This document shows, in pieces, positions 21,209-37,162 of a stretch of 64,000 nt of DNA. A model generated the notes under the pieces. The model did not search any database, had not been told where the DNA came from, and worked only from the letters and a program-made list of their open reading frames with translations. The stretch spans positions 11,291-75,290 of the IMG/VR virus record IMGVR_UViG_3300030104_003872, one strand, 5' to 3'. This DNA comes from a virus. Every line of letters begins with the position of its first letter. The first letter of the stretch is position 1. The position numbers and the translations under genes are program-made.

Positions 21209-21361
21209 ATGATTTTGAAAAGGTATTTTATTGAATGGCGTGATGGAACAATAACCGAAATTAGCATTGATGAATTGAAGCGATTAGATGAATCAGGATT
21301 CCCGAAATCCATGCTTAATTTCATGGAATATCGGGCGTTTAGGAAGTGGTTGAAGGATTAG
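21209..21361 (+). CDS. hypothetical protein (50 aa, not in ORF track)
   Basis: MILKRYFIEWRDGTITEISIDELKRL...WLKD*; ends at the terminator hairpin; all Glu codons are GAA. Confidence 0.45.
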   Translation: MILKRYFIEWRDGTITEISIDELKRLDESGFPKSMLNFMEYRAFRKWLKD

Positions 21362-21410
21362 GCCGAAAGGCCACCTTCTTCCCTTTTTTTTGTGTTTTTT
21401 CAGATTTTTT
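21360..21410 (+). terminator. hairpin plus oligo-T terminator
   Basis: GGCC-GAAA-GGCC followed by three T-tracts (T8, T6, T6). Confidence 0.75.
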
Positions 21411-21448
21411 GAATCTACCGCATAAAAGATGGTTAAAGCCTTCGGTCC

Positions 21449-21545
21449 GCCCCTGTGAGAGAACAAAGGTCCGGAGAAAAAAGGTCAGGAGAAAAAGGTC
21501 TGGAGAAAAAGGTCACGCTGACAAAGGTCAGCCCCTGTGAGAGAA
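21449..21545 (+). repeat. iteron-like array: five AAAGGTC between 15-bp direct repeats
   Basis: AAAGGTC at 21465, 21480, 21494, 21508 and 21523; GCCCCTGTGAGAGAA at 21449 and 21531. Confidence 0.85.
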
Positions 21546-21600
21546 AACACGAGACGCCACCCATGATGACGCCTCGCTTACGTTAGTCCTCTGTCTCGAT

Positions 21601-21789
21601 TCAATTCATCTCAACAAGTGTCTGAATTAAGCATTGCTCCAGTTGTTGCGGGGTCATCTCTGCGTTTATGCCGAGGTCTATTGGTGTTCTCACTAGAGTT
21701 GTTATTACACCTTCCTGACGCCCGTCGTCTCCAACGACTGCGTGTTGCACGATTTTCGCGGTCACTTCTCCTATCTTTATTTTTCTCAT
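21601..21789 (-). CDS. hypothetical early protein
   Basis: AGGAGG RBS; TATA at 21838-47. Confidence 0.6.
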   Translation of the reverse strand: MRKIKIGEVTAKIVQHAVVGDDGRQEGVITTLVRTPIDLGINAEMTPQQLEQCLIQTLVEMN

Positions 21790-22047
21790 TTCATTTCCTC
21801 CTATGGGCTTTCCGCCCTACCTCCTCATGGAAGCCATAGTATATATACTTTGTGTATTTACGACCTCCACCTGAGAACTCTTTCTCGGCTCGGGGTGAGG
21901 CCCCCAAAAAGTAGTGTCGGGGAGAGAGAGGCTCGGGGAGAGGCCCTAAAAGACGCTCTCTCGCCCGGTCCGCCCCCGAGTAGGCGTTTGAGTGCGAGTC
22001 GTGATGCCAGACCGCCCCTCCGAGATGTCGTGGCTGAGTCGTACGTT

Positions 22048-22075
22048 TCTCCGGAGACCGCAATGTTTATAACCC
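22048..22075 (+). promoter_or_regulatory. early promoter: TCTC-CG-GAGA palindrome, 8-nt spacer, TTTATAA
   Basis: Same geometry as ten other early promoters. Confidence 0.7.
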
Positions 22076-22112
22076 CCTACCCCTACAGCGAGGTAGGCCA
22101 AGAGGCCGGGAG

Positions 22113-22460
22113 GTGAAAAATCTGGAAACTGAGAATTACTGGGAGAACTGCGAGAGAAAGACAGGAGCGGCGCTCGGAAAGTTGGGAGTCAAGACCGCCA
22201 AGAGTATTGGCGTAAAAGGAGCATGGACTCTAAAATACCGAGGCAAGGCAAAAATACTCGTTGGTTGCATGAGGAGAGTTGAATCCGAGTGGGCTGACAA
22301 GAGTATTCTGAACGAGAAAAAGGACAGAGTTGCTGAGCACGTTACAGTCTGTGAGCACGGAGTGGCAGTTGGAGCATCCACGAGAAAGGTTGCGATAGAG
22401 CTGGCTAAGAAATCCGAGCACTGGTGCGAGAAGTGTGCCGCGAGAACCGCCGTCCTTTGA
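22113..22460 (+). CDS. C/H-W family protein, copy 2
   Basis: GAWTLK.R.KA...VGC and VCEHG...GASTRKVAIELAK..EHWCEKC; start uncertain (GTG 22113 or CTG 22122). Confidence 0.75.
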   Translation: MKNLETENYWENCERKTGAALGKLGVKTAKSIGVKGAWTLKYRGKAKILVGCMRRVESEWADKSILNEKKDRVAEHVTVCEHGVAVGASTRKVAIELAKKSEHWCEKCAARTAVL

Positions 22461-22970
22461 GACGCGACGTAAATCCAATGACCCCCGAAAGGGGCGAGGA
22501 TGTACTCTCTGGGGTCACGACTCTCTAGTATTGAGGCTCGACCCTATTTGCACAAAGGTCGGGGGGTCACGACTCCGCCCCTTCTCGACCCTAAACGCAC
22601 AAAGGTCAGAAGCCTCCGGGTCCGCCCCAGAGAGAGAAGGCTCGATTCTCACTCATCTTAACCCCTAACCCGAGAACTCGAGCGTTTCTCCGTGTGCGGG
22701 CGGGCGAGCGAGTACTCAAATGTATGACATAAAAGGACCCTGAGCCGACGGGTCACGCCCCACGACTCACTGCTCATCACGACACGCATCTCAGGAGAGG
22801 AGCACGTTTTTTTAGTGGGAGCACAGGTCACCAGAGCCCCCCTACTCTACACGAGCGGACCCTAGAAGGCTTGAGCCCCTCAGGAATCTCGTGGGTGATG
22901 AGCTCCGGCAGGTATTTCTCCCACCAGAGCCTTTACGTCATCTCGAATAACTATCTCGGGGATAGAATAC

Positions 22971-23378
22971 TCAGACGCTCGCATCCTTGATGCTCTGTCT
23001 TGATTTCTCACACCAGATGTGAGCCAGTTTGCATAGCTCGATTGCTTTCTTTCTCGATGATGCTCCCATCACTGACCCATAGTCTGTGACCGCAACATGA
23101 GTTGGTGCAACCATCTCGCCATTTACGAGAATGGTCATGCCTTTGGTCGCTTCGGTAACTTGCTCATCCGCGTTCTCCACGAAAATGCAACCGACCCGAC
23201 ATCCAGCCTTCCTTCTCATCTTCAAAGTCCATGCTCCGGCTCTTCCGATGGTTCTCGCAGTCTTGGCTCCGTCCTTGCCGAGATGTGCTCCAGTTGAAAC
23301 TGTTGCTCCATCCCAATACATGGTCGGGGTTTTCTCTGCTTTACTGCTCTTCTTAGTGCTCTTACTAGTTTTGCTCAT
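22971..23378 (-). CDS. C/H-W family protein, copy 3
   Basis: GAWTLKMRRKAGCRVGC and GASSRKKAIELCK..HIWCEKS; clearly paralogous to 22113. Confidence 0.8.
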   Translation of the reverse strand: MSKTSKSTKKSSKAEKTPTMYWDGATVSTGAHLGKDGAKTARTIGRAGAWTLKMRRKAGCRVGCIFVENADEQVTEATKGMTILVNGEMVAPTHVAVTDYGSVMGASSRKKAIELCKLAHIWCEKSRQSIKDASV

Positions 23379-23480
23379 AAAGTTCTCCTCCTTGTCTCCA
23401 ATACGTGTCTCCGAGTCACGGTAAGGTTCTCATTCAATGTCATTCTCATCGTCCGCCCTACATGACCAGATAGAAGTTAT

Positions 23481-23608
23481 AGGATATAAAGTTTTCGGAC
23501 TCTTGAGTTAGACCGCCCTCACCGTGAGAGTAGTGGAGAAGTCGTAATGTTTTCACTCGAGTTGTCGATGCCTACGTAAAAGAGAACAGGGAGGCAATTC
23601 TCCGCCCC
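23481..23608. promoter_or_regulatory. composite intergenic module 1
   Basis: Minus-strand TATA 23481-90, ACTCTTGAGT 23499, ACTCGAGTTGTCGATG 23555, AAAAG 23578, TCCGCCCC 23601. Confidence 0.8.
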
Positions 23609-23612
23609 TGTC

Positions 23613-24041
23613 TCAATCTCTTCTAGTTTGACCATATAGCCGAGATTCAAATGCTTGCTCGGCTTGTTTCTCTAGTCTCTGTACTTCTGCGTGCTCGTCA
23701 ATTTTCTCTAGTACCTCTGCCACATCTTTCTCGGCCTGTCTCTTATTGTATATCTCCCAAACTTTGTCGGTTACGTTTCTCTTAACCATTTCTCCGAAGT
23801 GTCTCCATTGTCCCTCGTTTATGATATCTCTAGTCTTGTCATCAGTCAATGACCCAAGACCCATGTGTGATAATTTCTCCATTAGAGAATCTATTACGAC
23901 CGGACTGTCATGGAGTTTATCGTACTCTATTGAGTATATTTTGTCTATCTCATTTATTGTGAGTACGTCATCGGTATTTCTCCGGAGGTCTAATCTCCAA
24001 CCTCTGCTGAAATAGGTCCATTTTATCTCAGAGTATGACAC
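23613..24041 (-). CDS. hypothetical early protein
   Basis: Lies between modules 1 and 2; GTG start next to the upstream stop. Confidence 0.6.
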   Translation of the reverse strand: MSYSEIKWTYFSRGWRLDLRRNTDDVLTINEIDKIYSIEYDKLHDSPVVIDSLMEKLSHMGLGSLTDDKTRDIINEGQWRHFGEMVKRNVTDKVWEIYNKRQAEKDVAEVLEKIDEHAEVQRLEKQAEQAFESRLYGQTRRD

Positions 24042-24188
24042 CTATCTCCACCAACAGTCGAAATGTTCAGGCTCAATCGTTTCCTTCTCGGACTTGGTGG
24101 CTCCTTTCTTAACGAGAACCACTCGCCCCTTAAAGAGTTTATTAGCCAACTCTTTTGTTATCTCATATTCATTACTTCTCAATTTCAT
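24042..24188 (-). CDS. hypothetical protein (48 aa, not in ORF track)
   Basis: AAAGGTGA RBS; MKLRSNEYEITKELANK...CWWR*; first gene after the module 2 promoter. Confidence 0.5.
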   Translation of the reverse strand: MKLRSNEYEITKELANKLFKGRVVLVKKGATKSEKETIEPEHFDCWWR

Positions 24189-24242
24189 TTCTCTATTTCA
24201 CCTTTCCTCGGCCTTCCGGCCTACTCTGAGGATGGAAGTCAT

Positions 24243-24346
24243 AGGATATAAACATTTCTGACTCTTGAGTTGTCGCGTGTAGCGTAATAATTTACTCGAG
24301 TTGTCGATGACTACACAAAAGGTCTTGCTCTTGACGACTCCGCCCC
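24243..24346. promoter_or_regulatory. composite intergenic module 2
   Basis: TATA 24243-52, ACTCTTGAGT 24261, ACTCGAGTTGTCGATG 24294, AAAAG 24317, TCCGCCCC 24339. Confidence 0.8.
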
Positions 24347-24382
24347 AACTCTACCGCGTGAGGCAAAGGGGGTATCTCGCAA

Positions 24383-25195
24383 TCACTCGTAATGCGGAGA
24401 ATCCGCGTACTCGTAAAGACCAGTTATAGGTTCGACCTTATAGAAGTGCTCTTTTGCACAGACCCATCCGGTCGGTGTATATCCCTCGGGATAAGTCGAA
24501 CTAACTGTCTCGTCACCGCCTAGAGATTCCCAATCCGGCTCCCATTGTGCTCCATTCGCTCGCCTGTCTTTTATCTCTTGTAACCATTGTATTCTCTTAA
24601 GTTCTCTGAGAACGGCATAGGCTTCTCGGAATGTATTAAGTGGTCCGAGGAAAGCATCGTGGCTCACAATAGAGCGATACCATCCGCCCTCCTCTGGTCC
24701 GCCGTATGCTCTTACTTTCTCGTACCTGCTCACATATATTTGGTCGCCGTGATTCTTCTCCCAATAACCTTCCTCGGGGAAGAAATCGTACTCACCTTCT
24801 TTGAGCAGATATAGTTTCTCCATACCTGAGCCAGCGTAATGCCATCTCTGATAGTCCCACTGCTCTTTGCGGTACTCGTAAAGTGTAACGAGCCAGTCGC
24901 CGTTGATACTCTGATATTTATCTCCTATTCGCTCAGGAAGACCATTTTCGTCTTGTTCTCTGCAATATTGCTCAAACGCCTGTTGCTCAGTCTGATGTCG
25001 AATTCTCTTCTGCTTGTGCTCACGCCTTGACTCGCTATGCTTTAGGTCATAGACCCAAGCACGAGTGGATAGCAATGTTCTCGCTAAACCGGTCAGTTCT
25101 GCATTCTCTTCAAAACTTCTCTTTTCGTCGTATAATTCTTTCTCTTTCTCGTAATCTGTCATATTTTTCTCACCTCCCTTATGGTCTGACTCCAT
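24383..25195 (-). CDS. hypothetical early protein (YGGPEEGGW motif)
   Basis: Long ORF; GGAGGTGA precedes an internal Met (about 25162), which is the likely true start. Confidence 0.65.
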   Translation of the reverse strand: MESDHKGGEKNMTDYEKEKELYDEKRSFEENAELTGLARTLLSTRAWVYDLKHSESRREHKQKRIRHQTEQQAFEQYCREQDENGLPERIGDKYQSINGDWLVTLYEYRKEQWDYQRWHYAGSGMEKLYLLKEGEYDFFPEEGYWEKNHGDQIYVSRYEKVRAYGGPEEGGWYRSIVSHDAFLGPLNTFREAYAVLRELKRIQWLQEIKDRRANGAQWEPDWESLGGDETVSSTYPEGYTPTGWVCAKEHFYKVEPITGLYEYADSPHYE

Positions 25196-25213
25196 TTCAT
25201 TGTATTCTCTTGA

Positions 25214-25570
25214 TTATAACTCATTAACTGCATCTCTTAATTCGACTTCATTGGCTATTCGAGTTGCTTCTCGATGTGCCTTTAATCTCCGGATGTAACT
25301 CCTATCTTCTTTCTCTAATGTATCGAACTCTTCACCTGCGAATCTCGCATAGTTGGTCAATAATGCGTGGAGATTAATACGATGCACTCCGCAACTATAT
25401 CTCATTAGTTTTAACGAGTGCCTATCTCCCTTCATGGGAGATGATTGCATCTCTAATAGTTCGACCTGTAAGTCAAACTCTTTCATTTTCTCTAGTAACT
25501 CTTTCTGTAACTCAACTGCTCTAATCATAGAGTTTATGAGTTCCATTTCTTCATCCTCCGTTTCCGCCAT
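25214..25570 (-). CDS. hypothetical helical protein (leaderless)
   Basis: ATG about 20 nt downstream of the module 3 TATA. Confidence 0.65.
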   Translation of the reverse strand: MAETEDEEMELINSMIRAVELQKELLEKMKEFDLQVELLEMQSSPMKGDRHSLKLMRYSCGVHRINLHALLTNYARFAGEEFDTLEKEDRSYIRRLKAHREATRIANEVELRDAVNEL

Positions 25571-25589
25571 GTAGAGGTATAGGGGTTCT

Positions 25590-25693
25590 AGGTATTAAAC
25601 CTTTCTAACTCCTGAGTATCCTCAGAGAATGATAGATTTACTCGAGTTGTCGATGGGTTGGTAAAAGAGAATAGGATTGTGAATCTCCGCCCC
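25590..25693. promoter_or_regulatory. composite intergenic module 3
   Basis: TATA 25590-99, ACTCCTGAGT 25608, ACTCGAGTTGTCGATG 25640, AAAAG 25663, TCCGCCCC 25686. Confidence 0.8.
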
Positions 25694-25699
25694 ACACGA

Positions 25700-26176
25700 C
25701 TAGTAATTAAAATCGGTCAGGGGAAAGTCATTCTCTTCGACTATCCTTTCGTTGTTCTCAAAGAACTTCCTCACATGCTCAAGACCTATCAGATGGGCTC
25801 TACCGGACTTACTTCTATTGTCGATAACTGATGGGTCATCTGCAAACTGCTCGTTCAGTATGCTCAGATATAATCTCTTAGCCACATCATACTCTTGAGG
25901 TTTCCATAATAAGACCTCTTCTGTCTCGACATATCTTTGCTCAGTTCTAAATCGAGTGTTGATTCGCTCTAATTGCTCATCATCCATGATTTCTCTGCTT
26001 CTGAGCAGAATAAAACCATGCTCATGATGACCTAGTTCCTCGTCATAACTCTTATTCACAGACCATATTAAATCTCTTAATTCAGATTTCTCTTCACCAG
26101 TTCTGCTCATCCATGAACGAGCAAGTGATTGTGGTGTCGTGTGTCGCCACTCTGTACGTGACCTGACCAAAATCAT
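25700..26176 (-). CDS. hypothetical early protein
   Basis: ORF in the minus-strand operon; true start may lie further upstream, near GGAGGTGA at about 26225. Confidence 0.55.
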   Translation of the reverse strand: MILVRSRTEWRHTTPQSLARSWMSRTGEEKSELRDLIWSVNKSYDEELGHHEHGFILLRSREIMDDEQLERINTRFRTEQRYVETEEVLLWKPQEYDVAKRLYLSILNEQFADDPSVIDNRSKSGRAHLIGLEHVRKFFENNERIVEENDFPLTDFNY

Positions 26177-26256
26177 CCTGTCCTCTGATATTTTATACTC
26201 GTATTCGTCTATCTCTATTCACCTCCTTTAGACTCCAAATCTCCCATCTATGAATC

Positions 26257-26595
26257 TCATTGCAGAGAACTTTCCTTCTCTTGCTTTTGCATCTCGTACA
26301 TCATCTTTCTCCCTTCTATACGAGCCTTCCACATAGAGATACCAAAACTCATTGCTTGTTGTCTCTTTTCCATATCCTCATCAAACGGGTCCATACCCAT
26401 TCTCGCGGGTAAGACCATAGTGGCGTCGCATAAGTCGCAACATCTCGAATCGAAATCTTTTGGGTCAGCAAGGAGTGGGTAGGGATTATTACCCATGTAT
26501 TCTCCGGTCTTGAATAATAACTCGTTGGTATGAGGGTGTCTTGGTCCCTTAATCTCTTTCTTACAGAGACAACACTTAAGATTACTCTTCCTCAT
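26257..26595 (-). CDS. Zn-finger protein
   Basis: CCLC...GNNPYP...RCCDLCD..V.PAR. Confidence 0.65.
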   Translation of the reverse strand: MRKSNLKCCLCKKEIKGPRHPHTNELLFKTGEYMGNNPYPLLADPKDFDSRCCDLCDATMVLPARMGMDPFDEDMEKRQQAMSFGISMWKARIEGRKMMYEMQKQEKESSLQ

Positions 26596-26779
26596 CGTTG
26601 ATTGCTCCTTCTAATAGTCGTCGAATGACACTAGGGTCAATAGCAGACTCTTTGATAAGAGCCATAAACTCTTCGGCCGTTTGACCTGTTGCTACCGTTT
26701 CGCCTGTCTCTTTGCTTACAACTCTGAATAAAGGAGCATCCGCACCCGCATTCTCTGTCTCTACATCAATTACGGTCAT
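26582..26779 (-). CDS. hypothetical protein
   Basis: AGGAGTG RBS; coupled to the next gene. Confidence 0.55.
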   Translation of the reverse strand: MTVIDVETENAGADAPLFRVVSKETGETVATGQTAEEFMALIKESAIDPSVIRRLLEGAINDEEE

Positions 26780-26939
26780 ACTTATGCACTCCTAGCCTCA
26801 TACTGTTTTTTGGTCAGTCCATACCTTCTCAGGTAATATTTGTCGTTCATCTCTTCAATCATATTTCTCATCTTGTTGCTCATCTTCTATTCGCTCCTGT
26901 TTCATGTGGGCTCGCCACGCTAATATCTCTATATGTATT

Positions 26940-27104
26940 TTACTCATCTACTTTCCTCCTTATCCTTAAATACTCATGGCAGGGCTCGCAAAGAGTTGCA
27001 CTCTCACCTGCCCGACCTGAATGGAAATCAGTCGGCATATTACCGACAACCCACCATGACTCGGCATGGAATAAGTCGTCACCACATTGGTCGCAATAGG
27101 TCAT
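26940..27104 (-). CDS. small Zn-ribbon protein (not in ORF track)
   Basis: MTYCDQC...LCEPCHE; ATGA overlap with a small leaderless ORF at 27101-27232. Confidence 0.45.
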   Translation of the reverse strand: MTYCDQCGDDLFHAESWWVVGNMPTDFHSGRAGESATLCEPCHEYLRIRRKVDE

Positions 27105-27251
27105 TCTAAATCATACTCCTCATATACCCACTCTGGGGTTTCTAGTCGAAACTTGAATCTGGTCACCAAGAGTTTATTCCGTAGTCGGGAATACTTAACT
27201 CGGGTGATGTTTCCATCGTCGCCGTCCGCCATATCTACCAATTATCGTCTT

Positions 27252-27376
27252 AGGATATAAAGGTTTTGGACTCTTGAGTTATGGTGTATTTTAACTCGAG
27301 TTGTAGGTTATAGTAGTAAAAGGTTCGGTAGAGCACTACTCCGCCCCAACTCAAGAGTTGGAAAGGTTTATATTCT
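27252..27376. promoter_or_regulatory. composite intergenic module 4 (divergent promoters)
   Basis: Minus TATA 27252-61 with ACTCTTGAGT 27270; ACTCGAGTTGT 27294; AAAAG 27318; TCCGCCCC 27340; ACTCAAGAGT 27349 with plus TATA 27367. Confidence 0.8.
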
Positions 27377-27425
27377 AGTTAGATGATTCCCTCATGTAGC
27401 GGAAGCACAGGAGACATCAGATAAA

Positions 27426-28127
27426 ATGAGTGAAAATGAAAACAGAGTAATTGAACAAGAGACAGAGCGTGAAGCAGGTAAGAGTATAACCCTGACCTTC
27501 ACACCTATCGGAGCAATCATAGATTCCGAGAAAGAAAGCAAAGTACAAGAGCAAGATGAAAATGCAGACCTGTTCTTTATGAGAAGTATCAACACGACCT
27601 TCGGGTTCAAGATGTTGAGAAACTCATGGGATAGTGAGCACGACATCAAAGCAGGAGCAACTGAGACTAATACCAAGAGTACAAATGGACTAAGAATCGG
27701 AGATACAACCGTGACGAGTTTCATAACATCAGAGTTGGAGTGGTTCAAAGAGGCACTAATGCCTCTGCTTATCGACCAAAGTGATGTGGAGATAATCCAG
27801 ACCACTAAGGAAGAGATAGTAATAGTTGAGCCACTAGGCAGATACGAGCACTTCGGTTGGGACGAGACACCAGAGTGGGCTGATGAAAGAGTAACCCTCG
27901 AATACATCGACCTTCGTAATGGTAAGGCCTCTATTCTCGTACAAGGCGAGACAGGTTCTGACCTTCAAGGGGATGAGGTGAACGAGGCAGTTAAGGGCTA
28001 CCACGATATGCTTATGAGTACCATCAGAAGTATGACCTGCACAGACGAGAATGAATATAGCAGAGATTGTAAGAGTTTGCTTAAAGTGGAGTCTCATAGA
28101 GTTTGCGACACATCCTTCTTGAATTGA
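27426..28127 (+). CDS. hypothetical acidic protein
   Basis: Follows the module 4 plus-strand promoter; AGGAG RBS. Confidence 0.7.
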   Translation: MSENENRVIEQETEREAGKSITLTFTPIGAIIDSEKESKVQEQDENADLFFMRSINTTFGFKMLRNSWDSEHDIKAGATETNTKSTNGLRIGDTTVTSFITSELEWFKEALMPLLIDQSDVEIIQTTKEEIVIVEPLGRYEHFGWDETPEWADERVTLEYIDLRNGKASILVQGETGSDLQGDEVNEAVKGYHDMLMSTIRSMTCTDENEYSRDCKSLLKVESHRVCDTSFLN

Positions 28128-28245
28128 GTTCTTTGGGGGAGAGAACTTCGTAAGCCTCGGCGTGGGTAAATCTCACGCTGAGGTGAAACATCTTATGCTC
28201 TCAGTAGGAGGAACGATAGGATGACAGACCTGAAACTTCGAGGGG

Positions 28246-29445
28246 GTGATGAGAATGTCAGATGAAAGAGGATTAATACCTTACTCTAACAAAGAAGAGA
28301 TGATTCTCGCTATGCAAGATTTGTCGGATGAAATGCTTAAGGTAGGTCACGATAATGTGGAAGAGTTCCTAGCACTCGTAAAACAAGAGATGTGGGATAG
28401 AGAACACGCTATGGTGGTCACATACAATGAAGAGTTCAAAGAAAAGTGGGCTCATGTATTCGACTTATTTAACGAAGGTTGGTCTATATTAAGAGAACTA
28501 TACCAAATATGCGAGGACTATGATGGAGATAATAATTTTATCACAGAGAAGAATGAGCATCCGAATTATCCTCATTGCGAGTTAGAAAAGGCTTGGGTCG
28601 TAAGATACGAGTCATTTTTAGCAAGAGCAAAAGATATGCCTAGTCGTGGTTATACACATGAGGGACCATATGGAACTCTAGTATTCAGAGAAGAATATCT
28701 AAAAGAGTTGGATTTAGAGTCTTATTGGGCGACTACATATTCAACGGAGATAGCAAGGAGATTGGAGCCTAAAGAGAAGGACTTAAAGTATGGTCTTACT
28801 TTTGCTCATTATCCTACAGACCCTTTCAAAGAGGAAGAGGAATACATCGAAGATTGGAGCAGATACAAATATGTTAGAGATACTAAGATAGAGGCCTTTG
28901 ATAAAGTCGTATATTTCTTGAGAAATGTTATGGTTAAGTCGGAGACAAAGGATATAAGACCTTCACAAAACGACGATTGGAAAACCAATGAGCTCAAACA
29001 CTATAATCTCGAAACACATCAGTTAGAGAGACCTTTAGAGTGGAAGATAATAGAGGATGAGCAGATAGTGGGTGCTATTTACGGTAGAGGTAGGAGCGAT
29101 AATAAATATGCGACTTGTTTCGACTGTGATGAAAATGGTCGAAATAGATTAGCCGTGAGAACATATTACGAGCGTGGGTATCAAGAGATGCCAGGAGCTC
29201 CTGTTCATGCTACATGCGAGTACTTTACTTGTATGAGATGTGGAAGTGAGCGTAAAGGTGGAGAACATGGAGATTTCCCTGTTGGTGGAGTTGACTTAAT
29301 AGGTCAGCCACTCTTTGCAGGTATGAGCACAGAAGAAGTATGTCGTCAATGCTCATGTTATACTACCAAACAGTACGGTGGTAGCGGAGAACGAGGAAGC
29401 GATAGGGAGTGTTGGGCTTGCTATGGAGAACCCGGTCATTACTAG
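28246..29445 (+). CDS. hypothetical protein with C-terminal CxxC pairs
   Basis: CFDC, CMRC, CRQC and CWAC; GGGGGTGA RBS. Confidence 0.7.
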   Translation: MMRMSDERGLIPYSNKEEMILAMQDLSDEMLKVGHDNVEEFLALVKQEMWDREHAMVVTYNEEFKEKWAHVFDLFNEGWSILRELYQICEDYDGDNNFITEKNEHPNYPHCELEKAWVVRYESFLARAKDMPSRGYTHEGPYGTLVFREEYLKELDLESYWATTYSTEIARRLEPKEKDLKYGLTFAHYPTDPFKEEEEYIEDWSRYKYVRDTKIEAFDKVVYFLRNVMVKSETKDIRPSQNDDWKTNELKHYNLETHQLERPLEWKIIEDEQIVGAIYGRGRSDNKYATCFDCDENGRNRLAVRTYYERGYQEMPGAPVHATCEYFTCMRCGSERKGGEHGDFPVGGVDLIGQPLFAGMSTEEVCRQCSCYTTKQYGGSGERGSDRECWACYGEPGHY

Positions 29446-29519
29446 ACAGGTCTGGTGGTAGAGATACCGCCATTCCTCTCACTCTAAGATAAAAGAAAAG
29501 AGCGCTCCTCTCTCCGCCC

Positions 29520-29820
29520 CTTGAGAGAAGAAGGTGGTGGGTCTAGATTGCAGTATGCCTACCCAGCAATGTCTCCCCGACCCACCGAAAGGAGTATTAG
29601 GTGGAGGCTTATCCGACTTGTTACCGCCTGTTTTAGACTCACTTCCTCGTTGCATTTCTGCCTCTTTCGAGATAAGGGTAGTGTGCGGCTCGGTTACGGT
29701 TTGGTCTACCACCTGTTTATGTAGACTCGCCCCCTTTTTGTATGCTCCGTCATGTACCCGTTCTCATGGTGGACGGAGCCACACCATGTGGTCGTTTCGT
29801 GCGGAAGAACGCTCGAATTG
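29520..29820. ncRNA. candidate multi-hairpin structured RNA or long 3' UTR
   Basis: Stems GGTGGGTC/GACCCACC, GTCTAC/GTAGAC and GCTCCGTC/GACGGAGC, CTC-GAAA-GAG (minus); U-tract at the minus-strand 3' end. Confidence 0.4.
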
Positions 29821-29821
29821 T

Positions 29822-30301
29822 CTAAGCAGTCGCTTTAACTTCTGTCTCTGTGACTTCTGTCTCAGCCTCTGCCGTTGCTTTAGCCTCTTCCTCGGCTTTC
29901 GCCTTAGCCTCGGCTAATTTCTCCACTATCTTTTGAGCCTTGTTGCTCCATGTGGCCGGATGTCTCGCTAGTTCGAGTGCCTTTTTCCTTGAAGTTGCTC
30001 CGTGCTTCTGGAGAATCTTCATTTTTAGGTCTTTTGCTCCCTTTTCGTGAGTTCCTGTGATAACGACTGTATGCTTGTCTGGTCTGTTACAGATAGGCTC
30101 GTCAGATGCCTCGGTTAAGTAAATTCTCACTTGCATACCTCCAATCTCCTGACAACCCTTCTCACGCCACAATCCTCTGATGCCGTAAAGGTCAACATTA
30201 GAGTGTCCGTGTGTTTCTGTATCTCCCTTAGACCACTTTGGGATAGGTTTCTCATCTTCTGTGGTCTTTGATTCTGATTTAGTCTCTTTCTTTGTGCTCA
30301 T
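29822..30301 (-). CDS. C/H-W family protein, copy 4 (Cys-degenerate)
   Basis: HTVVI...HGATSRKKALELARHPATWSNKA; GGAGGTGA RBS. Confidence 0.7.
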   Translation of the reverse strand: MSTKKETKSESKTTEDEKPIPKWSKGDTETHGHSNVDLYGIRGLWREKGCQEIGGMQVRIYLTEASDEPICNRPDKHTVVITGTHEKGAKDLKMKILQKHGATSRKKALELARHPATWSNKAQKIVEKLAEAKAKAEEEAKATAEAETEVTETEVKATA

Positions 30302-30365
30302 AACATTTCACCTCCTCGGGGTTTCGCAGTCCTCCCGCTTCGCATATCTACAACTACATTTATCT

Positions 30366-30533
30366 AGTATATATAATGTTCTAACTCTTGAGTTGTGCTT
30401 GAGTTGTAGCCTACTGCCTTACTACTAGAGTAGATACTACGCGTGTAGTGAGTGAGTGCTCTTATTATTGGTAAAAGATTCGGTAGAGGTATTCTCCCGC
30501 CCGTAACTCGTGAGATGGAAACATTTATGTGCC
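30366..30533. promoter_or_regulatory. composite intergenic module 5 (divergent promoters)
   Basis: Minus TATA 30366-75 with ACTCTTGAGT 30384; AAAAG 30473 and TCCCGCCC 30495; ACTCGTGAGA 30506 with TTTATGT 30524. Confidence 0.75.
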
Positions 30534-30594
30534 GTCAAGATATATTAGTAGATATGTACGGTACGACGATAAGTTTTACACAGGAGGCTGAATA

Positions 30595-31023
30595 ATGAAA
30601 TGCGAGGCAATGGGGTGCGACAGCGAGGCTACGCTTATGTGTCACCAGAGTTACTTATGCGAGGGTTGTGGTGTTGAGATGGCGAAGGCGACAGGCCACG
30701 ATACTCAACCTATTATACTGTCGTCTGTACTCAAAACTATGAGTGAAGAAGAAAAGGAGTTTCTTGACCCACTTACTGTTCTTGTCGATGACGAAGAGCA
30801 TGACCACCGCACATTTGATTTACAAGATGTCGGTACAATTGACCACATAGTACCTACTAATGGTTTGACCATATTCCATGAGCCTATTGTCATGGCGAGG
30901 TGCGTTCATTGTGAGGCATACGCTATCGGTCATATCAACAAGGTAGGAGGTTGGTTCGCGAGACACCAACACTACCACACGCACGCAGAGGCAAATGATG
31001 ACGACTTTGCCATGCCGTCGTGA
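30595..31023 (+). CDS. Zn-finger protein
   Basis: CEAMGC...C...LCEGC and RCVHC...WF..H..YH; AGGAGG RBS. Confidence 0.65.
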   Translation: MKCEAMGCDSEATLMCHQSYLCEGCGVEMAKATGHDTQPIILSSVLKTMSEEEKEFLDPLTVLVDDEEHDHRTFDLQDVGTIDHIVPTNGLTIFHEPIVMARCVHCEAYAIGHINKVGGWFARHQHYHTHAEANDDDFAMPS

Positions 31024-31043
31024 GTTCAAAAACTTTATATCCT
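31016..31043 (+). promoter_or_regulatory. early promoter (degenerate palindrome CGTCGTGAGT, 8 nt, TTTATATCCT)
   Basis: Same spacing as the other early promoters. Confidence 0.65.
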
Positions 31044-31086
31044 AGAATTAATTATTGGTAGTATAGCGGAAGCGGAGGAAAGTATA

Positions 31087-31653
31087 ATGAGCAAATCAGC
31101 CGAAGAAGAGTTAATAGAAGAGTGGAAAGAACCAGAGCAACCAATGGATTATCTGATTCGACAACAAGAGAATGCTATCACGCAGACCAAGTATCTATTC
31201 TACAAACTCTATGATAAGAGTGACAAAGGATGGAGTGACGAGCAGAAAGAAGAGTGGGGTAATCATATCGACGAAAACGGTTTCCGCAAGTCGGAGTTAT
31301 TCCAAGAAGTACCTGCTCAACACAGATATGTGGTCGCTATACCAGAGACAGGCGAGTGGAAATCATTTAAGACTCGTTCCGAGGTAACACAAGACCGGCA
31401 AGGTGGAGCAATGTACCCCTATGCTAAGTGGTCTAAGCACGAGTCAGCCCGAATGGAGGCCTATGGTGCTATGAAACTCATGAGTTTAGCGTGTTCTAAG
31501 GTCTTACCTGAGAACTGTGATGACGAGCAAGCGTATTTACGACCTTCCGACATTGAAAGAGTTGCACTTATCCTATTAGAGATTGACGCAGAGCGAAGGG
31601 AATTATCAGAGTATTACGATGAGTTAGCCCAAGAATTAGAGGTTTCAGCATGA
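31087..31653 (+). CDS. hypothetical protein
   Basis: GGAGG RBS; ATGA overlap with the helicase gene. Confidence 0.65.
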   Translation: MSKSAEEELIEEWKEPEQPMDYLIRQQENAITQTKYLFYKLYDKSDKGWSDEQKEEWGNHIDENGFRKSELFQEVPAQHRYVVAIPETGEWKSFKTRSEVTQDRQGGAMYPYAKWSKHESARMEAYGAMKLMSLACSKVLPENCDDEQAYLRPSDIERVALILLEIDAERRELSEYYDELAQELEVSA

Positions 31654-33281
31654 GTATTGAAGAAGAGAACCTTCCAGTTAGAGTTTCAGAAAGACTCAAG
31701 GAATTGAGTGACACGAAAAGAAGTGAAATGAGCCTATATCTCTGGCAAGAAGGAGCAATACAGGCTTGGTCAGGCAACGGAGTTGCACGTGACCCTATTT
31801 CTGATAAACCTCTAGATGGTGATAAAGAGTTCTTTGGTATTGTCTCAGCCGTGACCGGTTCTGGAAAGACCTATGTTGCATCAGAGTGTGCGTGGGTCTG
31901 GTTACAGAAGAACCCAACCGGTAGAGTAACCGTATTGGTCCCGTCAAGAGCATTACAGAATAAGTGGAGAAAAGACATGGCCGGAGCGTTCCCCCACATG
32001 AGAATAGGTATGATGGGTGGTGGTAGAAGAGATTTCCGACAAATATCAATAGTGACCATGAATACGGCCGCTAAAGGTCTTCCAGAGACAGACGGTGAGC
32101 ATCTTATCATTGTAGATGAGTGCCATAATATCGGTTCAGAGTTTCGACAATATGCTATTCGTAATAATTCTCATACTGCGGTATTAGGTCTTAGTGCAAC
32201 TCCAGCGAGGGAAGATAGCGGTTTGACCGTTGTATCACACCTATGCGGTCCGGTCGTTTATCAATACAAGTATGACCAAGCACTCAACGACGATGTTATT
32301 ATCCCGTTTAGAGTTAGGGCGGTTGCAGTTCCTCTAACCCATATGGAGCGTTCAGAATATGAAGAGATTACAAATCAGATTAGGAAAATCTCTTTCATCC
32401 TCCGTAAGCGATATGGAGCAGGTACAAATTGGTTTGCACTCAAACAAGACCCATCAGACCCCGATACTGCTTTGACCACGTTCAAAGACCTATGTATGAA
32501 GCGTAAGAGACTTGTAAATGAGTGTCATCTAAGATTCGAGTGCGTTGATGATATATTGAGGTTACACGAGAACAGTAAGACCATGATATTTCACGAGCGT
32601 ATCAAACAAATAGAGTGGATGCACGATAAATACCGAGGCCTATGTCCAGAGACAATACCAAATTGCGAGGACACATGGGAAGAAGTCGCTTTGACCCCAC
32701 CGGACTGTTCCGAGTGGTTAGGCATGAATCCAGAGTTATATCACGGTGATATGACCAAAGGGGAAAATGATAGAGCGTTTGAGGCATTTGCCGAGGGCGA
32801 TGCTAGTATTCTCTTGTCATGTAAGGCTCTTCGTGAAGGAGTTGATGTACCCTCGTGCGACTTAGGTATTATGGTGAGTGGTACTAATTCCGCTCGTGCT
32901 AGAGTTCAGACACTTGGTCGTTGCTTGAGACGTGGAGAAGGTAAAACAGGAGCGATTGTATATTTACTCTATGTCCCAAATACGACTGATGCGAAAGGAC
33001 TCGCTAATCTCAAATATGGTGGAAAACTACCCGACGGTACTATCGAATGGTGGAGATACACCCCCAACAAAGGTCTAGTTAAGTATGGTGAGGAAGAGCA
33101 ACCCGAAATACCTAAGAGGAAACCAAAAGCCGAGAAGAAGAAACATATATGTGACTCGTGTCATAAGGTCTTTCATACGGAGTCAGCATCGTTGTCAGAG
33201 AACCACCATTGCTATCCTCGATTAACCAAGACAGGTCGAAAGCCTATTGACCTTTGGGGTGATATGATTGGTCGAAAGTGA
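31650..33281 (+). CDS. superfamily 2 DEAD/DEAH helicase (XPB/Rad25-like)
   Basis: TGSGKT, IVDECH, GLSATP, EGVDVP and QTLGRCLR; C-terminal C2H2-like CDSC...HH. Confidence 0.92.
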   Translation: MSIEEENLPVRVSERLKELSDTKRSEMSLYLWQEGAIQAWSGNGVARDPISDKPLDGDKEFFGIVSAVTGSGKTYVASECAWVWLQKNPTGRVTVLVPSRALQNKWRKDMAGAFPHMRIGMMGGGRRDFRQISIVTMNTAAKGLPETDGEHLIIVDECHNIGSEFRQYAIRNNSHTAVLGLSATPAREDSGLTVVSHLCGPVVYQYKYDQALNDDVIIPFRVRAVAVPLTHMERSEYEEITNQIRKISFILRKRYGAGTNWFALKQDPSDPDTALTTFKDLCMKRKRLVNECHLRFECVDDILRLHENSKTMIFHERIKQIEWMHDKYRGLCPETIPNCEDTWEEVALTPPDCSEWLGMNPELYHGDMTKGENDRAFEAFAEGDASILLSCKALREGVDVPSCDLGIMVSGTNSARARVQTLGRCLRRGEGKTGAIVYLLYVPNTTDAKGLANLKYGGKLPDGTIEWWRYTPNKGLVKYGEEEQPEIPKRKPKAEKKKHICDSCHKVFHTESASLSENHHCYPRLTKTGRKPIDLWGDMIGRK

Positions 33282-33464
33282 GAAAATACATAGATGCGAC
33301 TTAGAGATTATTGGTTTTGATTATGACCAAAAGAAATGGGAGGTCACAGAACACCTCCGATGTAAAGAGTGCGGTGCTAGAGCAACAAAGATAGTAAAAG
33401 AGGTATATGTTCTTGACTCTTACTCAAAAAATATTAAGACATAGCCGGTAGCGACGTCTACTTG

Positions 33465-33492
33465 ACTCAAGAGTCAGCAATGTTTATATCCT
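33465..33492 (+). promoter_or_regulatory. early promoter (TGACTCAAGAGTCA palindrome, TTTATATCCT)
   Basis: Palindrome core 33465-74, 8-nt spacer; drives leaderless ardC. Confidence 0.8.
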
Positions 33493-33511
33493 AGTTTGAT
33501 ATTTTGGTAGT

Positions 33512-34744
33512 ATGGCGAAAGACGGAGGCTTCGGAAGAAGCATGAGCAAGGAAAAGCGTAAAGAGTTTGAGCGTCAACTTGCTGATGAGTTCATTGAGAA
33601 AATAAAAAGTGGCGATGTCGGTGCTTGGAGTTCAGGTTGGACCAACTTAGGAGGCAATACTATGCCTCATAATACAAAAGGTCGCCCATATAGAGGTATA
33701 AACACAATAATTCTCTGGCTTAGAGGTTCAGATTATAACTCTAATACATGGGGTACTTATCACTCTTGGAAAGAGGTTGCGAGGAAACACGCAATAAAAG
33801 AGGGTAAGTTTGAGTTAAAAATCGGTAGAGATGGAAAACCATACAAGCATACGACTGAGTGGTATGGAGTAAAGCAAGGAGAAAGCGGTACAAGCATTAT
33901 TCTCTGGAAACCACTCACATACAAGAACGAGAAAACCAATAAAAAGACAGGTGAGATAGAAGAGTCTATCGGTATGACCATGTTAATGCGAGTATTTACA
34001 GTATTCAATCGTGACCAGACAGGATTACCTGAGATTATTACAGAAACAGAGTTAGAAGAAGCAGAAGAGTTCAACAGTAGAGAAAAACAATTAGAAAACT
34101 GCCTCAATTGGTACATTGAGAACCCAAATCGTAAGGTGGTCAAGACTGGTGAGATGCTAGTACATCCTCATCCGAAGGCAGGTGAGAAACATACAGGTGA
34201 AGACCCTATATGGGTCGTAAAAGATGGTGATATTATTCTCAAACACGGCGGAGATAGAGCGTTCTATACATCTAGCAGAGATAGGATAGCACTTCCTCTT
34301 CGTGAGCAATTCAAAGAAAATGCGAGATACCTATCTACTAAAGGGCATGAGATTATCCATAGTACAGGTCACCCACTTCGACTTAATCGTGCTCTTGGTA
34401 ATAGATTCGGGAGCGAAGATTATGCTAAGGAGGAATTGATTGCCGAGTTCGGTACTGCCTTTCTCATAGGCTCATTCGGCATACAGGGAGAACTTCGTAA
34501 TGTTGAGTATATCAATAATTGGGCTTCGGTCTTGAGTAAAGAACCTAGATTCCTCATTACTGCGGCTCAAAGAGCACAAAAAGCAGTTAATTATGTACTC
34601 GAACCTTGGGTAGAACACGAGGCATGGCGTGACCAAGAAATAAATGACTTAAGAGAATATCTTGAGGGCAAAGAAATACAAATTACTCCTATGGGTCTTA
34701 ACAGATTACACGGAGATTTATCAGTTATGGAGGAAGAAGAATGA
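33512..34744 (+). CDS. ardC: ArdC-like ssDNA-binding antirestriction protein with a zincin-like domain
   Basis: PYRGIN...W.TY..W, V..GE.GT, FTVFN.DQ; AFY....D.I.LP, HEIIHSTGH, YAKEELIAE, YINNW. Confidence 0.9.
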   Translation: MAKDGGFGRSMSKEKRKEFERQLADEFIEKIKSGDVGAWSSGWTNLGGNTMPHNTKGRPYRGINTIILWLRGSDYNSNTWGTYHSWKEVARKHAIKEGKFELKIGRDGKPYKHTTEWYGVKQGESGTSIILWKPLTYKNEKTNKKTGEIEESIGMTMLMRVFTVFNRDQTGLPEIITETELEEAEEFNSREKQLENCLNWYIENPNRKVVKTGEMLVHPHPKAGEKHTGEDPIWVVKDGDIILKHGGDRAFYTSSRDRIALPLREQFKENARYLSTKGHEIIHSTGHPLRLNRALGNRFGSEDYAKEELIAEFGTAFLIGSFGIQGELRNVEYINNWASVLSKEPRFLITAAQRAQKAVNYVLEPWVEHEAWRDQEINDLREYLEGKEIQITPMGLNRLHGDLSVMEEEE

Positions 34745-34814
34745 GTAAAAAGAAATTGAGTAAAGATGGGTTAGAGATATTTGAGTTCAAACTACCATCA
34801 AAGGAGGAAGAAGA

Positions 34815-34958
34815 ATGAGTTATAAGATATTGAGATTTAGATTTGAAGGAAAAACAAGAGTAATAAAAAGAGGATTGACACTCGAAGAAGCCCAAGAGCA
34901 TTGCCGTGACCCAAAAACAAGTGGAGATGGTTGGTTCGACGGTTATACGGAGGAATAA
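34815..34958 (+). CDS. small conserved-looking phage protein (not in ORF track)
   Basis: MSYKILRF...RGLTLEEAQEHCRDPKTS..GWFDGY; AGGAGG RBS. Confidence 0.6.
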   Translation: MSYKILRFRFEGKTRVIKRGLTLEEAQEHCRDPKTSGDGWFDGYTEE

Positions 34959-34960
34959 AT

Positions 34961-35116
34961 ATGGCTATGAGCAGAAAACATTATAGAGTAATAGCAGAGG
35001 CAATAAGAACAAACGACGATAAGAGGAAAATGATACTAGAACTCAGTATGTTTTTCAAGGAGGATAATCCTAATTTTAACTTGAGTAAGTTTTTGGAGGC
35101 GTGTCATTTTGAGTGA
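34961..35116 (+). CDS. small phage protein
   Basis: MSRKHYRVIA...DNPNFNLSKFLEAC; GGAGG RBS. Confidence 0.6.
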   Translation: MAMSRKHYRVIAEAIRTNDDKRKMILELSMFFKEDNPNFNLSKFLEACHFE

Positions 35117-35294
35117 ATACAAGAAGTGCAACGAGACACAACACGAATGGACTCGACAAGACATGGATGATAGCGAGTTCGATAAATTATCATTGACCTA
35201 CCATTGTTTGCATTGCGGAGCAACGTGCGAGATGGAGGGTGATGTAAGGACAGATGATGGTAGGTTCATAGAGTGGGTGCTGACCGATGAGTAA
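35109..35294 (+). CDS. small Zn-ribbon protein
   Basis: C....HEW...CLHCG; coupled overlaps. Confidence 0.5.
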   Translation: MSEYKKCNETQHEWTRQDMDDSEFDKLSLTYHCLHCGATCEMEGDVRTDDGRFIEWVLTDE

Positions 35295-35778
35295 TTGGTA
35301 CTGTGGCGACCCTTGTTATGTTATACACGACGAAAGATGGGGAGAGTTTTGTAATAAACTCTTTGCACACCCTAGTTATGAGAAAAACAACTACCCAATT
35401 GGTATAGAGTGGGAAGTCGATGGGAAAAAATACGAATTAGAGATATGGGGTTCTCCCGGAGGCGACGGGGTCTGGCGTTTTAGTGCAGGAGAACTTGGAG
35501 TTGATGCGGGATTACTTTCTATCATTCCGGTAGAGTGCCTTGACCCTCAAGAGGCACCATTCGACAGACTAGGTATTATGTTCGAGGAAAAGCCAGTACT
35601 CGATGCCGACTATAATGAGGGTAAAGTATGGTTAAATGGAGAACTAGATAATGATTGGGTCATGTGCGATTGTGGAGAAATGCAAAGGACAGAGCAGATT
35701 TGGGATTGTGAGCATTGTTTTAGTGCAGAGTGCGACAACTGTTACCCATGTTGCGACGGAAATGGTGAAGAGGAATGA
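35287..35778 (+). CDS. hypothetical protein with a C-terminal Cys cluster
   Basis: YCGDPCYV, GGDG and GVDAG motifs. Confidence 0.6.
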   Translation: MSNWYCGDPCYVIHDERWGEFCNKLFAHPSYEKNNYPIGIEWEVDGKKYELEIWGSPGGDGVWRFSAGELGVDAGLLSIIPVECLDPQEAPFDRLGIMFEEKPVLDADYNEGKVWLNGELDNDWVMCDCGEMQRTEQIWDCEHCFSAECDNCYPCCDGNGEEE

Positions 35779-35944
35779 GTAAGATGAATTGTGGATGCGA
35801 GTTTGATGAAGTAGAGTTGGATGAGCGTGTGTTAGGCGAGGCTTGTGGTTGCTCATCATGTCTGGACTGTGGACTCATCAACACACAAGACCCTAATCCT
35901 CAGAATTGGAAATGCTACCCCGACCACCCATGTTCCTGTGACTA

Positions 35945-35972
35945 ACTCAAGAGTTACAAATGTTTATGTACT
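35945..35972 (+). promoter_or_regulatory. early promoter (TAACTCAAGAGTTA palindrome, TTTATGTACT)
   Basis: Core 35945-54, 8-nt spacer. Confidence 0.75.
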
Positions 35973-36117
35973 AGTTAGCGTTAGGTGTAGATGTAGGGGG
36001 TTGTGAGGTGATTACGGTTTTTCCAGACTCGTGTCTTTCATTCAAACGAGTCATCACATTTCATTGTAATTCTCTGGCTGTTGTTGTCTCCACCTCCTGC
36101 AATCAAGGAGATTTAAT

Positions 36118-36468
36118 ATGAGAACAGATAGTTGGTCGGTACATGGAGATGAAATTGACGCAAAAGAGTATAAGAGCCTTGTTGAAGAGGCAGTTGTCAA
36201 AAACATGACCGAAAACAGAGATGTGGAATTAGAATTACTCATCCATGATGGCGAGTTTATGTCTGATGAAGAGATAATAGACAACCTTAGAGGTATGTTA
36301 GATGAGCACGTTTGGTATAGAGTTCTTTTAGACAAATATAGAGCACGCATAAGAACGGCCGAGACACTAATCAAAATGGTCCGTGACCATAATGGCTCTT
36401 TCGCGAGTGAAATTGCTATACAGACCAATGTTGACCTATTCCTAAGACACGGAGGCGAAGAAGAGTGA
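36118..36468 (+). CDS. hypothetical protein
   Basis: AAGGAG RBS after a structured leader. Confidence 0.6.
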   Translation: MRTDSWSVHGDEIDAKEYKSLVEEAVVKNMTENRDVELELLIHDGEFMSDEEIIDNLRGMLDEHVWYRVLLDKYRARIRTAETLIKMVRDHNGSFASEIAIQTNVDLFLRHGGEEE

Positions 36469-36583
36469 CGACAACATATAGACTAGAGATAATAATGGAT
36501 GCAGACGACAAAGACGACTTTATTGATGTGGTTATGAGTCTGAATAGAAGAGAGTTAAGAGAACACGTTAAGGAGATGGATTA

Positions 36584-37162
36584 ATGGCGATAGAGATACT
36601 ACAACAACCTTCTGTTGTGTGGCCGGTAGACCTTGATGCAGAGGATGATGACAGTTTCGGACGGACCTATGCAGAACAGGCTCAAGCATATTTTGAGCGT
36701 CTAAAAGAAAGCCCAGAGTACGGCGTGAGCACAGGTAAATTAGAAGCGACTTACGAAGATTGTCTCATATATGTATTGGCTAACTTCGGTCATGTCGATA
36801 TGAAGCAACTAACACCCTCGGTTGTTAGAGATGCTTATGGAGATAACTGTTGGTACATACATACTCATAAAACTCCACAAAAGACTTTGAGATTATACAT
36901 GAAAGTCGGAAATCCATTATCCGAGTTTGGGAGGCAGAATCAAGATTTGCTCCCAGATAACTACACTACTAGAAGAGTTGTATGTGAATGGTATGGTAGG
37001 GATGGAGGTATAGTTATACTCTATGGTCCAACTCCGGAAGATACAAGATTATGGTCTTTCGGGTGTAATCACTCGATGGCGACTAGGAAGCGGATAGGTA
37101 GTTGTTATAACGAGTATTCGTGCGAATGTGGAGCGAAATGGACGGTGGATTCGAGTGGTTAA
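36584..37162 (+). CDS. hypothetical protein
   Basis: AAGGAG RBS; C-terminal GC.H...C...CECG...VDS. Confidence 0.6.
   Translation: MAIEILQQPSVVWPVDLDAEDDDSFGRTYAEQAQAYFERLKESPEYGVSTGKLEATYEDCLIYVLANFGHVDMKQLTPSVVRDAYGDNCWYIHTHKTPQKTLRLYMKVGNPLSEFGRQNQDLLPDNYTTRRVVCEWYGRDGGIVILYGPTPEDTRLWSFGCNHSMATRKRIGSCYNEYSCECGAKWTVDSSG

Follow-up and report, generated by a model that had tools for sequence, protein, structure and literature searches.

The window analysed here, a stretch of 64,000 nucleotides (nt), corresponds to bases 11291-75290 of the 75,290-bp IMG/VR record IMGVR_UViG_3300030104_003872, and the element in question is a short palindromic box, (A/T)CTC-NN-GAG(T/A), standing in front of eleven promoters within a single block of viral genes. 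The genome has a G+C content of 42% and a terminal direct repeat of 50-99 nt, its first 50 nt recurring 100 nt from the end. A large terminase, a portal and a collagen-repeat fibre protein were recognised by Pfam/NCBIfam matches; the replication set consists of a family B DNA polymerase (PolB), an RFC-like AAA+ protein and nucleases of the PD-(D/E)XK and ERCC4 types, and an N6/N4 DNA methylase, an SF2 helicase and an ArdC-N/zincin-like protein are also encoded. Judged by polymerase and terminase, the nearest isolated viruses are haloarchaeal tailed viruses with merely 22-25% identity, and no near-identical DNA was present in the phage collection searched. The polymerase has relatives of 45-89% identity in more than 120 clusters, found on contigs of 40-74 kb from Tara and further metagenomes; IMG/VR contains 543 PolB relatives, and all RNA runs containing this sequence are marine. 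Magroviruses are tailed viruses of Marine Group II/Poseidoniales. The gene content is of their type, i.e. a marine genome in the 65-100 kb range with tailed-virus morphogenesis genes and an archaeal-type replication set, and the virus appears to fit among magrovirus-like tailed viruses of marine archaea.

All eleven promoters share a module of about 75 nt, which reads in order (A/T)CTC-NN-GAG(T/A), 2 nt, GAAA, 2 nt, TTTATAT(CCTAG), a variable spacer, GTAG(nTAT)GCGGA, a few nt, GGAGG (Shine-Dalgarno) and ATG. The 8-nt spacer between the box and the TATA box thus has the form nnGAAAnn; it is A-rich and resembles the archaeal TFB recognition element (BRE), its GAAA beginning 2 nt after the box. 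The modules are listed below with the open reading frames (ORFs) that they are predicted to drive; the basic paralogs, the RNA contigs and the related genomes G001 and L127 are described further on.

22048-22102 (+): module 1, box TCTCCGGAGA at 22048-22057, TATA box at 22066-22073, GTAG region at about 22093; ORF 22113-22460 (basic paralog), RNA contigs at 22148-22366.
23452-23508 (-): module 2, box ACTCAAGAGT at 23499-23508, TATA box at 23483-23490, GTAGGGCGGA from 23461; ORF 22971-23378 (basic paralog), RNA contig at 23221-23442.
24215-24270 (-): module 3, box at 24261-24270, TATA box at 24245-24252, GTAG from 24224; ORFs 24042-24188 and 23613-24041.
25565-25617 (-): module 4, box ACTCAGGAGT at 25608-25617, TATA box TTTAATAC at 25592-25599, ATG at 25570 inside the start region; ORFs 25214-25570 and 24383-25195, RNA contig at 25033-25214.
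27229-27279 (-): module 5, box at 27270-27279, TATA box at 27254-27261, GTAG from 27238; leftward block of small ORFs from 27232 to about 25700; ortholog in G001 at 841(-).
27349-27405 (+): module 6, divergent partner of module 5, box at 27349-27358, TATA box at 27367-27374, GTAGCGGAAG from 27396; ORF 27426-28127.
30342-30393 (-): module 7, box at 30384-30393, TATA box TATATATA at 30368-30375, GTAG from 30351; ORF 29822-30301 (basic paralog, kept as far as the relative L130), RNA contigs at 29687-29850 and 29868-30296.
30506-30560 (+): module 8, box ACTCGTGAGA at 30506-30515, TATA box TTTATGTG at 30524-30531, GTAG from 30548; ORF 30595-31023.
31016-31070 (+): module 9, degenerate box CGTCGTGAGT at 31016-31025, TATA box at 31034-31041, GTAG from 31058; ORF 31087-31653 and the SF2 helicase, 31650-33281.
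33465-33520 (+): module 10, box at 33465-33474, TATA box at 33483-33490, GTAGTATGGCGAA from 33507; ArdC-N/zincin-like gene, 33512-34744, and small ORFs up to 35945; orthologs in G001 at 6736(+) and in L127 at 4578(+).
35945-36000 (+): module 11, box at 35945-35954, TATA box TTTATGTA at 35963-35970, GTAG from 35987; ORFs from 36118 to about 38063; orthologs in G001 at 9057(+) and in L127 at 7499(+).

The most constant property of these modules is the register of the box. The gap between the 10-mer and the TATA box is exactly 8 nt at all eleven sites, and all 25 modules curated across three genomes show that same distance; the spacing from TATA to GTAG is variable (17-29 nt, mode 24). Across the window, WCTCNNGAGW occurs 14 times, against 4.3 +/- 2.0 in dinucleotide shuffles, none of 100 shuffles reaching 14. 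It is exact at ten of the promoter sites, the one at 31016 being degenerate, and the four matches elsewhere (1445, 22789, 31476 and 37900), which have no TATA box at the 8-nt spacing, equal the chance expectation in number. Against local shuffles, the 10-mer with its A/T flanks was found 13 times (expected 2.4 +/- 1.6, shuffle maximum 9) and the bare octamer CTCNNGAG 16 times (expected 6.3 +/- 2.6, about 2.5-fold, a count reached by one of 300 shuffles); the excess of the octamer is modest because the region is very rich in GAG/CTC. The decisive evidence is therefore the fixed position relative to TATA, rather than the count. A composite scan of the 75-kb genome with ACTCAAGAGT-N8-TTTATRT, allowing up to two mismatches, returned seven sites, all among the eleven, and its reversed-pattern control returned none; looser composite scans added only matches that lacked the BRE-like spacer and the GTAG/GCGGA start region.

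These results bear out the initial annotation, which had described eleven palindromes in early promoters, the one at 31016 degenerate, each exactly 8 bp upstream of TATA behind a BRE-like spacer. Its TWTAWRW formula for the TATA box holds at ten sites (TTTATAT five times, TTTATGT twice, TTTATAA, TTTATATT and TATATAT) and is broken by one, TTTAATA. A purine- and A-rich BRE followed by an A/T-rich TATA box, as in archaeal promoters, is present at all eleven. The box is an imperfect palindrome in this genome, with a centre reading AA in promoter direction at seven of the eleven sites. As had also been noted, other promoters do without it: TATA modules with the same downstream elements and no box lie at 21855(-), 39149(+) and 44765(+), and a TATTATATACTAAGG box without the palindrome at 20393(+). 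The conserved GTAG/GCGGA element lies 24-32 nt after the beginning of the TATA box, with GCGGA at about 32 nt, and transcription should, on this pattern, start some 27-31 nt after it; the box would therefore lie at about -47 to -38.

Further short elements were observed around the modules. The first, ACAACTCGAGT, is ACTC-GAGT without the 2-nt centre and lies 3-46 nt upstream of the box in five leftward promoters; with one mismatch allowed, it has 13 matches where 3.6 are expected, and it is also found in G001, upstream of the promoter at 841(-).

23555-23565, 24294-24304, 25640-25650, 27294-27304 and 30397-30407, all (-): sites of ACAACTCGAGT.

Just upstream of rightward boxes (27310-27348 and 30470-30505; also at 23509-23520) the sequence AAAAG-N3-CGGTAGAG-N6-9-TCC(C)GCCC was seen. 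Its CCGCCC stands on the same genome strand regardless of promoter direction, and on the opposite strand it corresponds to the GGCGGA in the start regions of leftward promoters.

Next, we examined the box in related viruses. An exact-pattern scan of IMG/VR singled out G001, with four matches; this syntenic record is 51.7 kb long and related at 75-80% nucleotide identity. L127, L129 and L130 were added through helicase-based alignment searches, with helicase identities of 80%, 69% and 52%, respectively (L129 has a G+C content of 52%; L130 is IMGVR_UViG_3300009705_000021, the same record as G016, PolB 56%). A related-locus search with single proteins gave nothing for ORF 27426-28127 and, for the helicase, no more than two close relatives. 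Across five pairs of orthologous promoters in this genome and G001, the box was identical at 50 of 50 positions; in the same pairs, identity was 88% in the TATA box, 79% in the start region, 68% in the BRE spacer, 55-60% in the other spacers and 28% upstream. L129 has nine modules, all in the 8-nt register, with CTC in nine of nine and GAG in seven of nine (GAC in the other two), and with the centres GC, AC, CT, AA, CT, AA, CT, CA and TT. The half-sites are thus mostly kept and the centre varies, which argues that selection acts on a dyad whose centre is free; the AA centre, oriented with the promoter in the present genome, appears to be a lineage peculiarity. CTC and GAG, which the initial annotation had taken to be the key bases, are indeed the most conserved positions of the box in G001 and L129. 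L130 has another, asymmetric box, TCSGAGAGCC, fixed 6 nt before TTTATATA in nine promoters (for example 336(-), 377(+), 893(+) and 2533(+)), and its downstream GTAG/ATGGCGAA start region is similar to that of this genome.

When 21 longer relatives were searched whole, the ACTC box at the 8-nt register was found only in G002 (PolB 86%) and in the L129 record. It was not found at this spacing in 15 relatives with PolB at 46-52%, seven of them at least 90% complete, except for a lone match in G011 that is probably due to chance; no match was found in G003 and G021, which are close but partial records, or in G016. Likewise, G004, G006, G008 and G012, examined in full, contained no fixed-offset box before TTTAT[AG]. 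By these comparisons the box seems to track a narrow viral lineage, as expected for a co-evolving pair of factor and site. In L131 (IMGVR_UViG_2825974508_000009), a distant helicase relative, 19 kb contain 18 copies of a separate palindrome, TCTAATAGA, which is the core of TTCTAATAGAA and has no obvious tie to promoters.

The eleven modules coincide with a domain of unusual word composition.

21457-38700: GAG/CTC-rich domain, holding all eleven modules.

GAG/CTC is the most unevenly distributed word in this genome. Its density, 14-26 per kb elsewhere, rises to 45-74 per kb between 21.7 and 36.7 kb and drops to 31 per kb in the final bin of the domain, i.e. it is 2-3 times denser across the box-bearing block of about 17 kb, and the observed/expected ratio is 1.14-1.47 in the domain (21.5-38.7 kb) as opposed to 0.4-0.9 elsewhere. 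The domain is directly abutted by 1,103 nt without any GAG or CTC (20354-21457), the longest gap of any strand-symmetric trinucleotide, which holds one unit, with the box-less TATA at about 20393 and a basic ORF of 145-167 aa. The 13 tetramers with the strongest enrichment in the early block over the rest include every one of the eight that contain GAG. The enrichment is partly synonymous, GAG making up 62% of Glu codons in the early block and 27% in the rest, and CTC 19% and 4% of Leu codons, with AAG/AAA unchanged (0.47 and 0.45); it is also present in intergenic DNA. The domain recurs in G001, G002, L127, L129 and L130, is weak in G004 and is absent in G006, G008 and G012. Thus the word at the core of the box is also the one that distinguishes the entire block, and this holds precisely in the lineages whose boxes contain GAG. 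Such a coincidence is compatible with the modification-sensing idea taken up below, and no less so with half-sites weakly bound by the box factor or with unrelated pressures.

RNA evidence came from two marine metatranscriptome runs belonging to one sample of one study, with contigs at least 99% identical to the genome. Within positions 20001-40000 of the window, the contigs cover five box-driven units and nothing outside such units. For module 6, contigs start at 27401 and at 27410, with one reaching 28133 (depth 23), and ORF 27426-28127 is matched nearly end to end. The contig end at 27401, although such contigs fix no 5' end precisely, falls 2-5 nt beyond the start element predicted at 27396-27399 and is consistent with the promoter model. 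No contigs were found at 30.3-40 kb or at 20-22.1 kb in this one sample, and thus none for the four rightward box-driven units at 30.5-38 kb. The pattern may mean that the regulon is expressed in two tiers, or just that depth was low, and is no evidence of silence. From gene content and the RNA contigs, we infer that the block is temporally early.

As for the protein that might bind the box, three basic paralogs, at 22113-22460(+), 22971-23378(-) and 29822-30301(-), attract attention, each being the first gene behind a box promoter and each covered by RNA contigs. Their N-terminal tail is rich in Lys, and the short forms show a Cys/His pattern. The family is very narrow, with 15 representatives among 1.84 billion proteins; a word-based search gave three matches, and the protein atlas no usable one. 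Structural models (pLDDT 72 and 83) had no convincing fold match (Foldseek E at least 0.2, best VIA Z 4.2), the first of them being matched solely via its long C-terminal helix. One homologue (P0127), on a marine contig, is a C-terminal extension of an archaeal-type ribosomal protein uS3, and this fusion points the family towards a role with RNA or the ribosome. The family, together with ORFs 26257-26595 and 31087-31653, is present in box-bearing genomes and missing from four box-less ones; this comparison is confounded by phylogeny and names no factor, and the basic paralogs are candidates only. A box shared with the host, which the initial annotation had thought worth seeking, did not emerge: a scan of 185,579 species genomes with ACTCWWGAGT-N3-RAA-N2-TTTATA, which covers this one spacing, gave 39 single matches against a chance estimate of about 50, assorted and mostly bacterial, with none in Poseidoniales.

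Two other features of the genome may be recorded here. An 862-aa protein encoded at 8902-11490(-) carries five stretches of collagen triple-helix repeats and is probably a tail fibre. GATC is absent from the whole 75 kb and GCGC and AGCT are nearly absent, a classic pattern of restriction-site avoidance.

To explain the box, we propose that the (A/T)CTC-NN-GAG(T/A) dyad would be the operator of one sequence-specific, probably dimeric, DNA-binding protein. Placed as estimated above, it would touch the upstream edge of the BRE in eleven otherwise near-consensus archaeal promoters, which would drive a pre-replicative block of small ORFan genes, the SF2 helicase and the ArdC-like protein, and one factor would thereby set the output of the whole block. 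This factor would contact TFB/TBP and stimulate their recruitment, that is, it would be an activator. That the box serves as a protein operator seems very probable from its sequence and arrangement. A site for a dimeric protein is suggested because the box is a dyad of 3-4-bp half-sites, more conserved than TATA and held in rigid register, and because it is confined to one gene block and is replaced by another box in a sister lineage. Given an operator, we lean slightly towards activation, by analogy, because of the position upstream of the BRE and the rigid 8-nt register with TATA. The element lies just upstream of the BRE in 25 of 25 curated modules, the 10-mer being wholly upstream of GAAA, so that only the footprint of a bound protein could reach the BRE. 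In published cases, archaeal activators bind immediately upstream of the BRE, as EarA, the ara-box and TrmBL1 at upstream TGMs exemplify, and repressors occupy the core promoter itself or positions downstream of it (PMC5512572, PMC4706686); the rule invoked in the initial annotation, that sites upstream of the BRE activate, agrees with these published cases. The complete proposal, an operator of one factor acting as an activator, is put forward tentatively.

Several observations weigh against it. Known upstream activators typically rescue weak BREs (PMC5512572), and here the core is near-consensus: GAAA and TTTATAT come close to the euryarchaeal consensus in most modules, as far as strength can be judged by sequence. 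As BRE and TATA look strong, a repressor that shuts the early genes off would fit almost equally well. For genes expressed first, an activator would moreover have to be encoded by the host, carried in the virion or made from a box-less unit, and no early ORF matched a DNA-binding Pfam/NCBIfam family in a search of about 40 ORFs. RNA was found for only five of the eleven units, all left of 30.3 kb, and the eleven promoters may not be one class; the contigs, finally, cannot place 5' ends precisely. Of the viral activator site originally suggested, a cis-regulatory site fixed just upstream of the BRE and defining a regulon in one block has held up; the viral origin of the factor is less secure, as no early ORF has a recognisable DNA-binding domain, and so is the activating sign.

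The repressor just mentioned would be a viral early or middle protein, possibly made from these very promoters, which binds the dyad, blocks TFB at the BRE and shuts off the early block at the onset of replication by negative feedback. Near-consensus core elements should fire unaided and early genes must fire on arrival, and the box lies 2 nt from the GAAA of the BRE, so that a bound dimer would abut TFB. Early genes of phages and archaeal viruses are commonly shut off by their own products, such as SSV1 F55 and SIRV1 SvtR, and the basic paralogs are the first genes behind three box promoters. However, the usual site of an archaeal repressor overlaps TATA/BRE or the point where transcription starts and needs no rigid register, whereas the register here is invariant, and the paralogs have no known DNA-binding fold, their uS3-fused relative pointing to RNA or the ribosome. 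On balance we regard repression as rather unlikely, though not far behind activation. Alternatively, the box could be an extended core-promoter element that is read by the basal machinery, for example by a TFB/TBP variant of a particular host or one modified by the virus, and that marks a promoter class. Its fixed register and contiguity with the BRE would agree with this, as would the asymmetric box of L130, which stands 6 nt before TATA, over the BRE position. Yet dimeric regulators, unlike TFB with its single helix-turn-helix, typically recognise dyads whose centre is free; this genome also has promoters that share the TATA and start region but lack the box; and no TFB- or TBP-like gene was found among the viral ORFs searched with Pfam/NCBIfam. 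Together these points make such an element improbable. A passive relic is disfavoured and very improbable: the modules would be copies of one ancestral promoter cassette in which the box has no function of its own. The whole module is similar among the eleven copies and the AA centre is co-oriented with the promoter in seven of them, but the box is more conserved than TATA between genomes whose spacers are 55-60% identical, and in L129 the flanks and centre have drifted while half-sites and register persist.

The initial annotation had further suggested a switch that senses modification. A mark on GAG/CTC would allow the factor to bind only the marked or only the unmarked dyad and thus to tell genomes that have just come in from those newly made. 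In its favour, CTC/GAG forms the conserved core of the box and GAGAG recurs in the L130 variant; the viral genes include one for an N6/N4-type DNA methylase; and GAG/CTC is concentrated in the box-bearing block and depleted elsewhere via synonymous codon choice, a pattern common to the box-bearing relatives and absent from three box-less ones. The mark on GAG/CTC and its placement by the methylase are nevertheless putative, and the word bias could equally come from half-sites being weakly bound, from early proteins rich in Glu, from an effect at the level of RNA or from the avoidance of restriction. To our knowledge, no methylation-sensitive promoter switch has been described in archaeal viruses, and we consider such a switch distinctly improbable. 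A broader version, in which one lineage-specific factor or methylase-placed mark reads GAG/CTC and switches the whole 17-kb domain as a unit, with the promoter boxes acting as high-affinity nucleation sites, also strikes us as improbable; if true, such a domain-wide, possibly modification-dependent early/late switch would be one not described for any archaeal virus.

Magrovirus-type viruses rank with the surface ocean's most abundant archaeal viruses, and the literature searched (magrovirus papers, full-text search) contained no mention of promoters for them, nor did we find there this motif, the regulon or any promoter model for this virus group. The present finding provides a promoter model, a regulon of eleven members and a 10-bp probe for finding the regulator. 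The lineage-specific variants of the box allow co-variation of factor and site to be traced across several hundred uncultured relatives, and the coincidence of the regulon with the GAG/CTC domain constitutes a testable link between transcription control and a reader or marker of that word.

Known systems resemble the box to different degrees. In the Dam-dependent promoters of bacteria and phages (pap, IS10, P1 cre, Mu mom), which are methylation-sensitive switches, a modifiable word in the regulator site tells old from new DNA, as it would in the switch considered above; unlike there, this genome has no GATC anywhere and its modification is hypothetical. The operators of SSV1 F55 and SIRV1 SvtR are, as here, repeated, common to several viral promoters and concerned with the timing of expression. 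They overlap TATA/BRE or the start site and act negatively, whereas the present box is wholly upstream of the BRE. In this respect the box is like the EarA sites of the Methanococcus maripaludis fla promoter, the Sulfolobus ara-box and the TrmBL1 TGM, which are likewise short specific elements immediately upstream of BRE/TATA; archaeal upstream activator sites are also, as here, common to several promoters, forming a regulon. The TGM is, moreover, a palindrome like this box, although it reads TATCAC-N5-GTGATA and the box has half-sites of 3-4 bp around a 2-bp centre. Unlike the EarA, ara-box and TrmBL1 systems, the arrangement described here combines an invariant TATA register with strong-looking core promoters, in a viral regulon governed by a putative factor.

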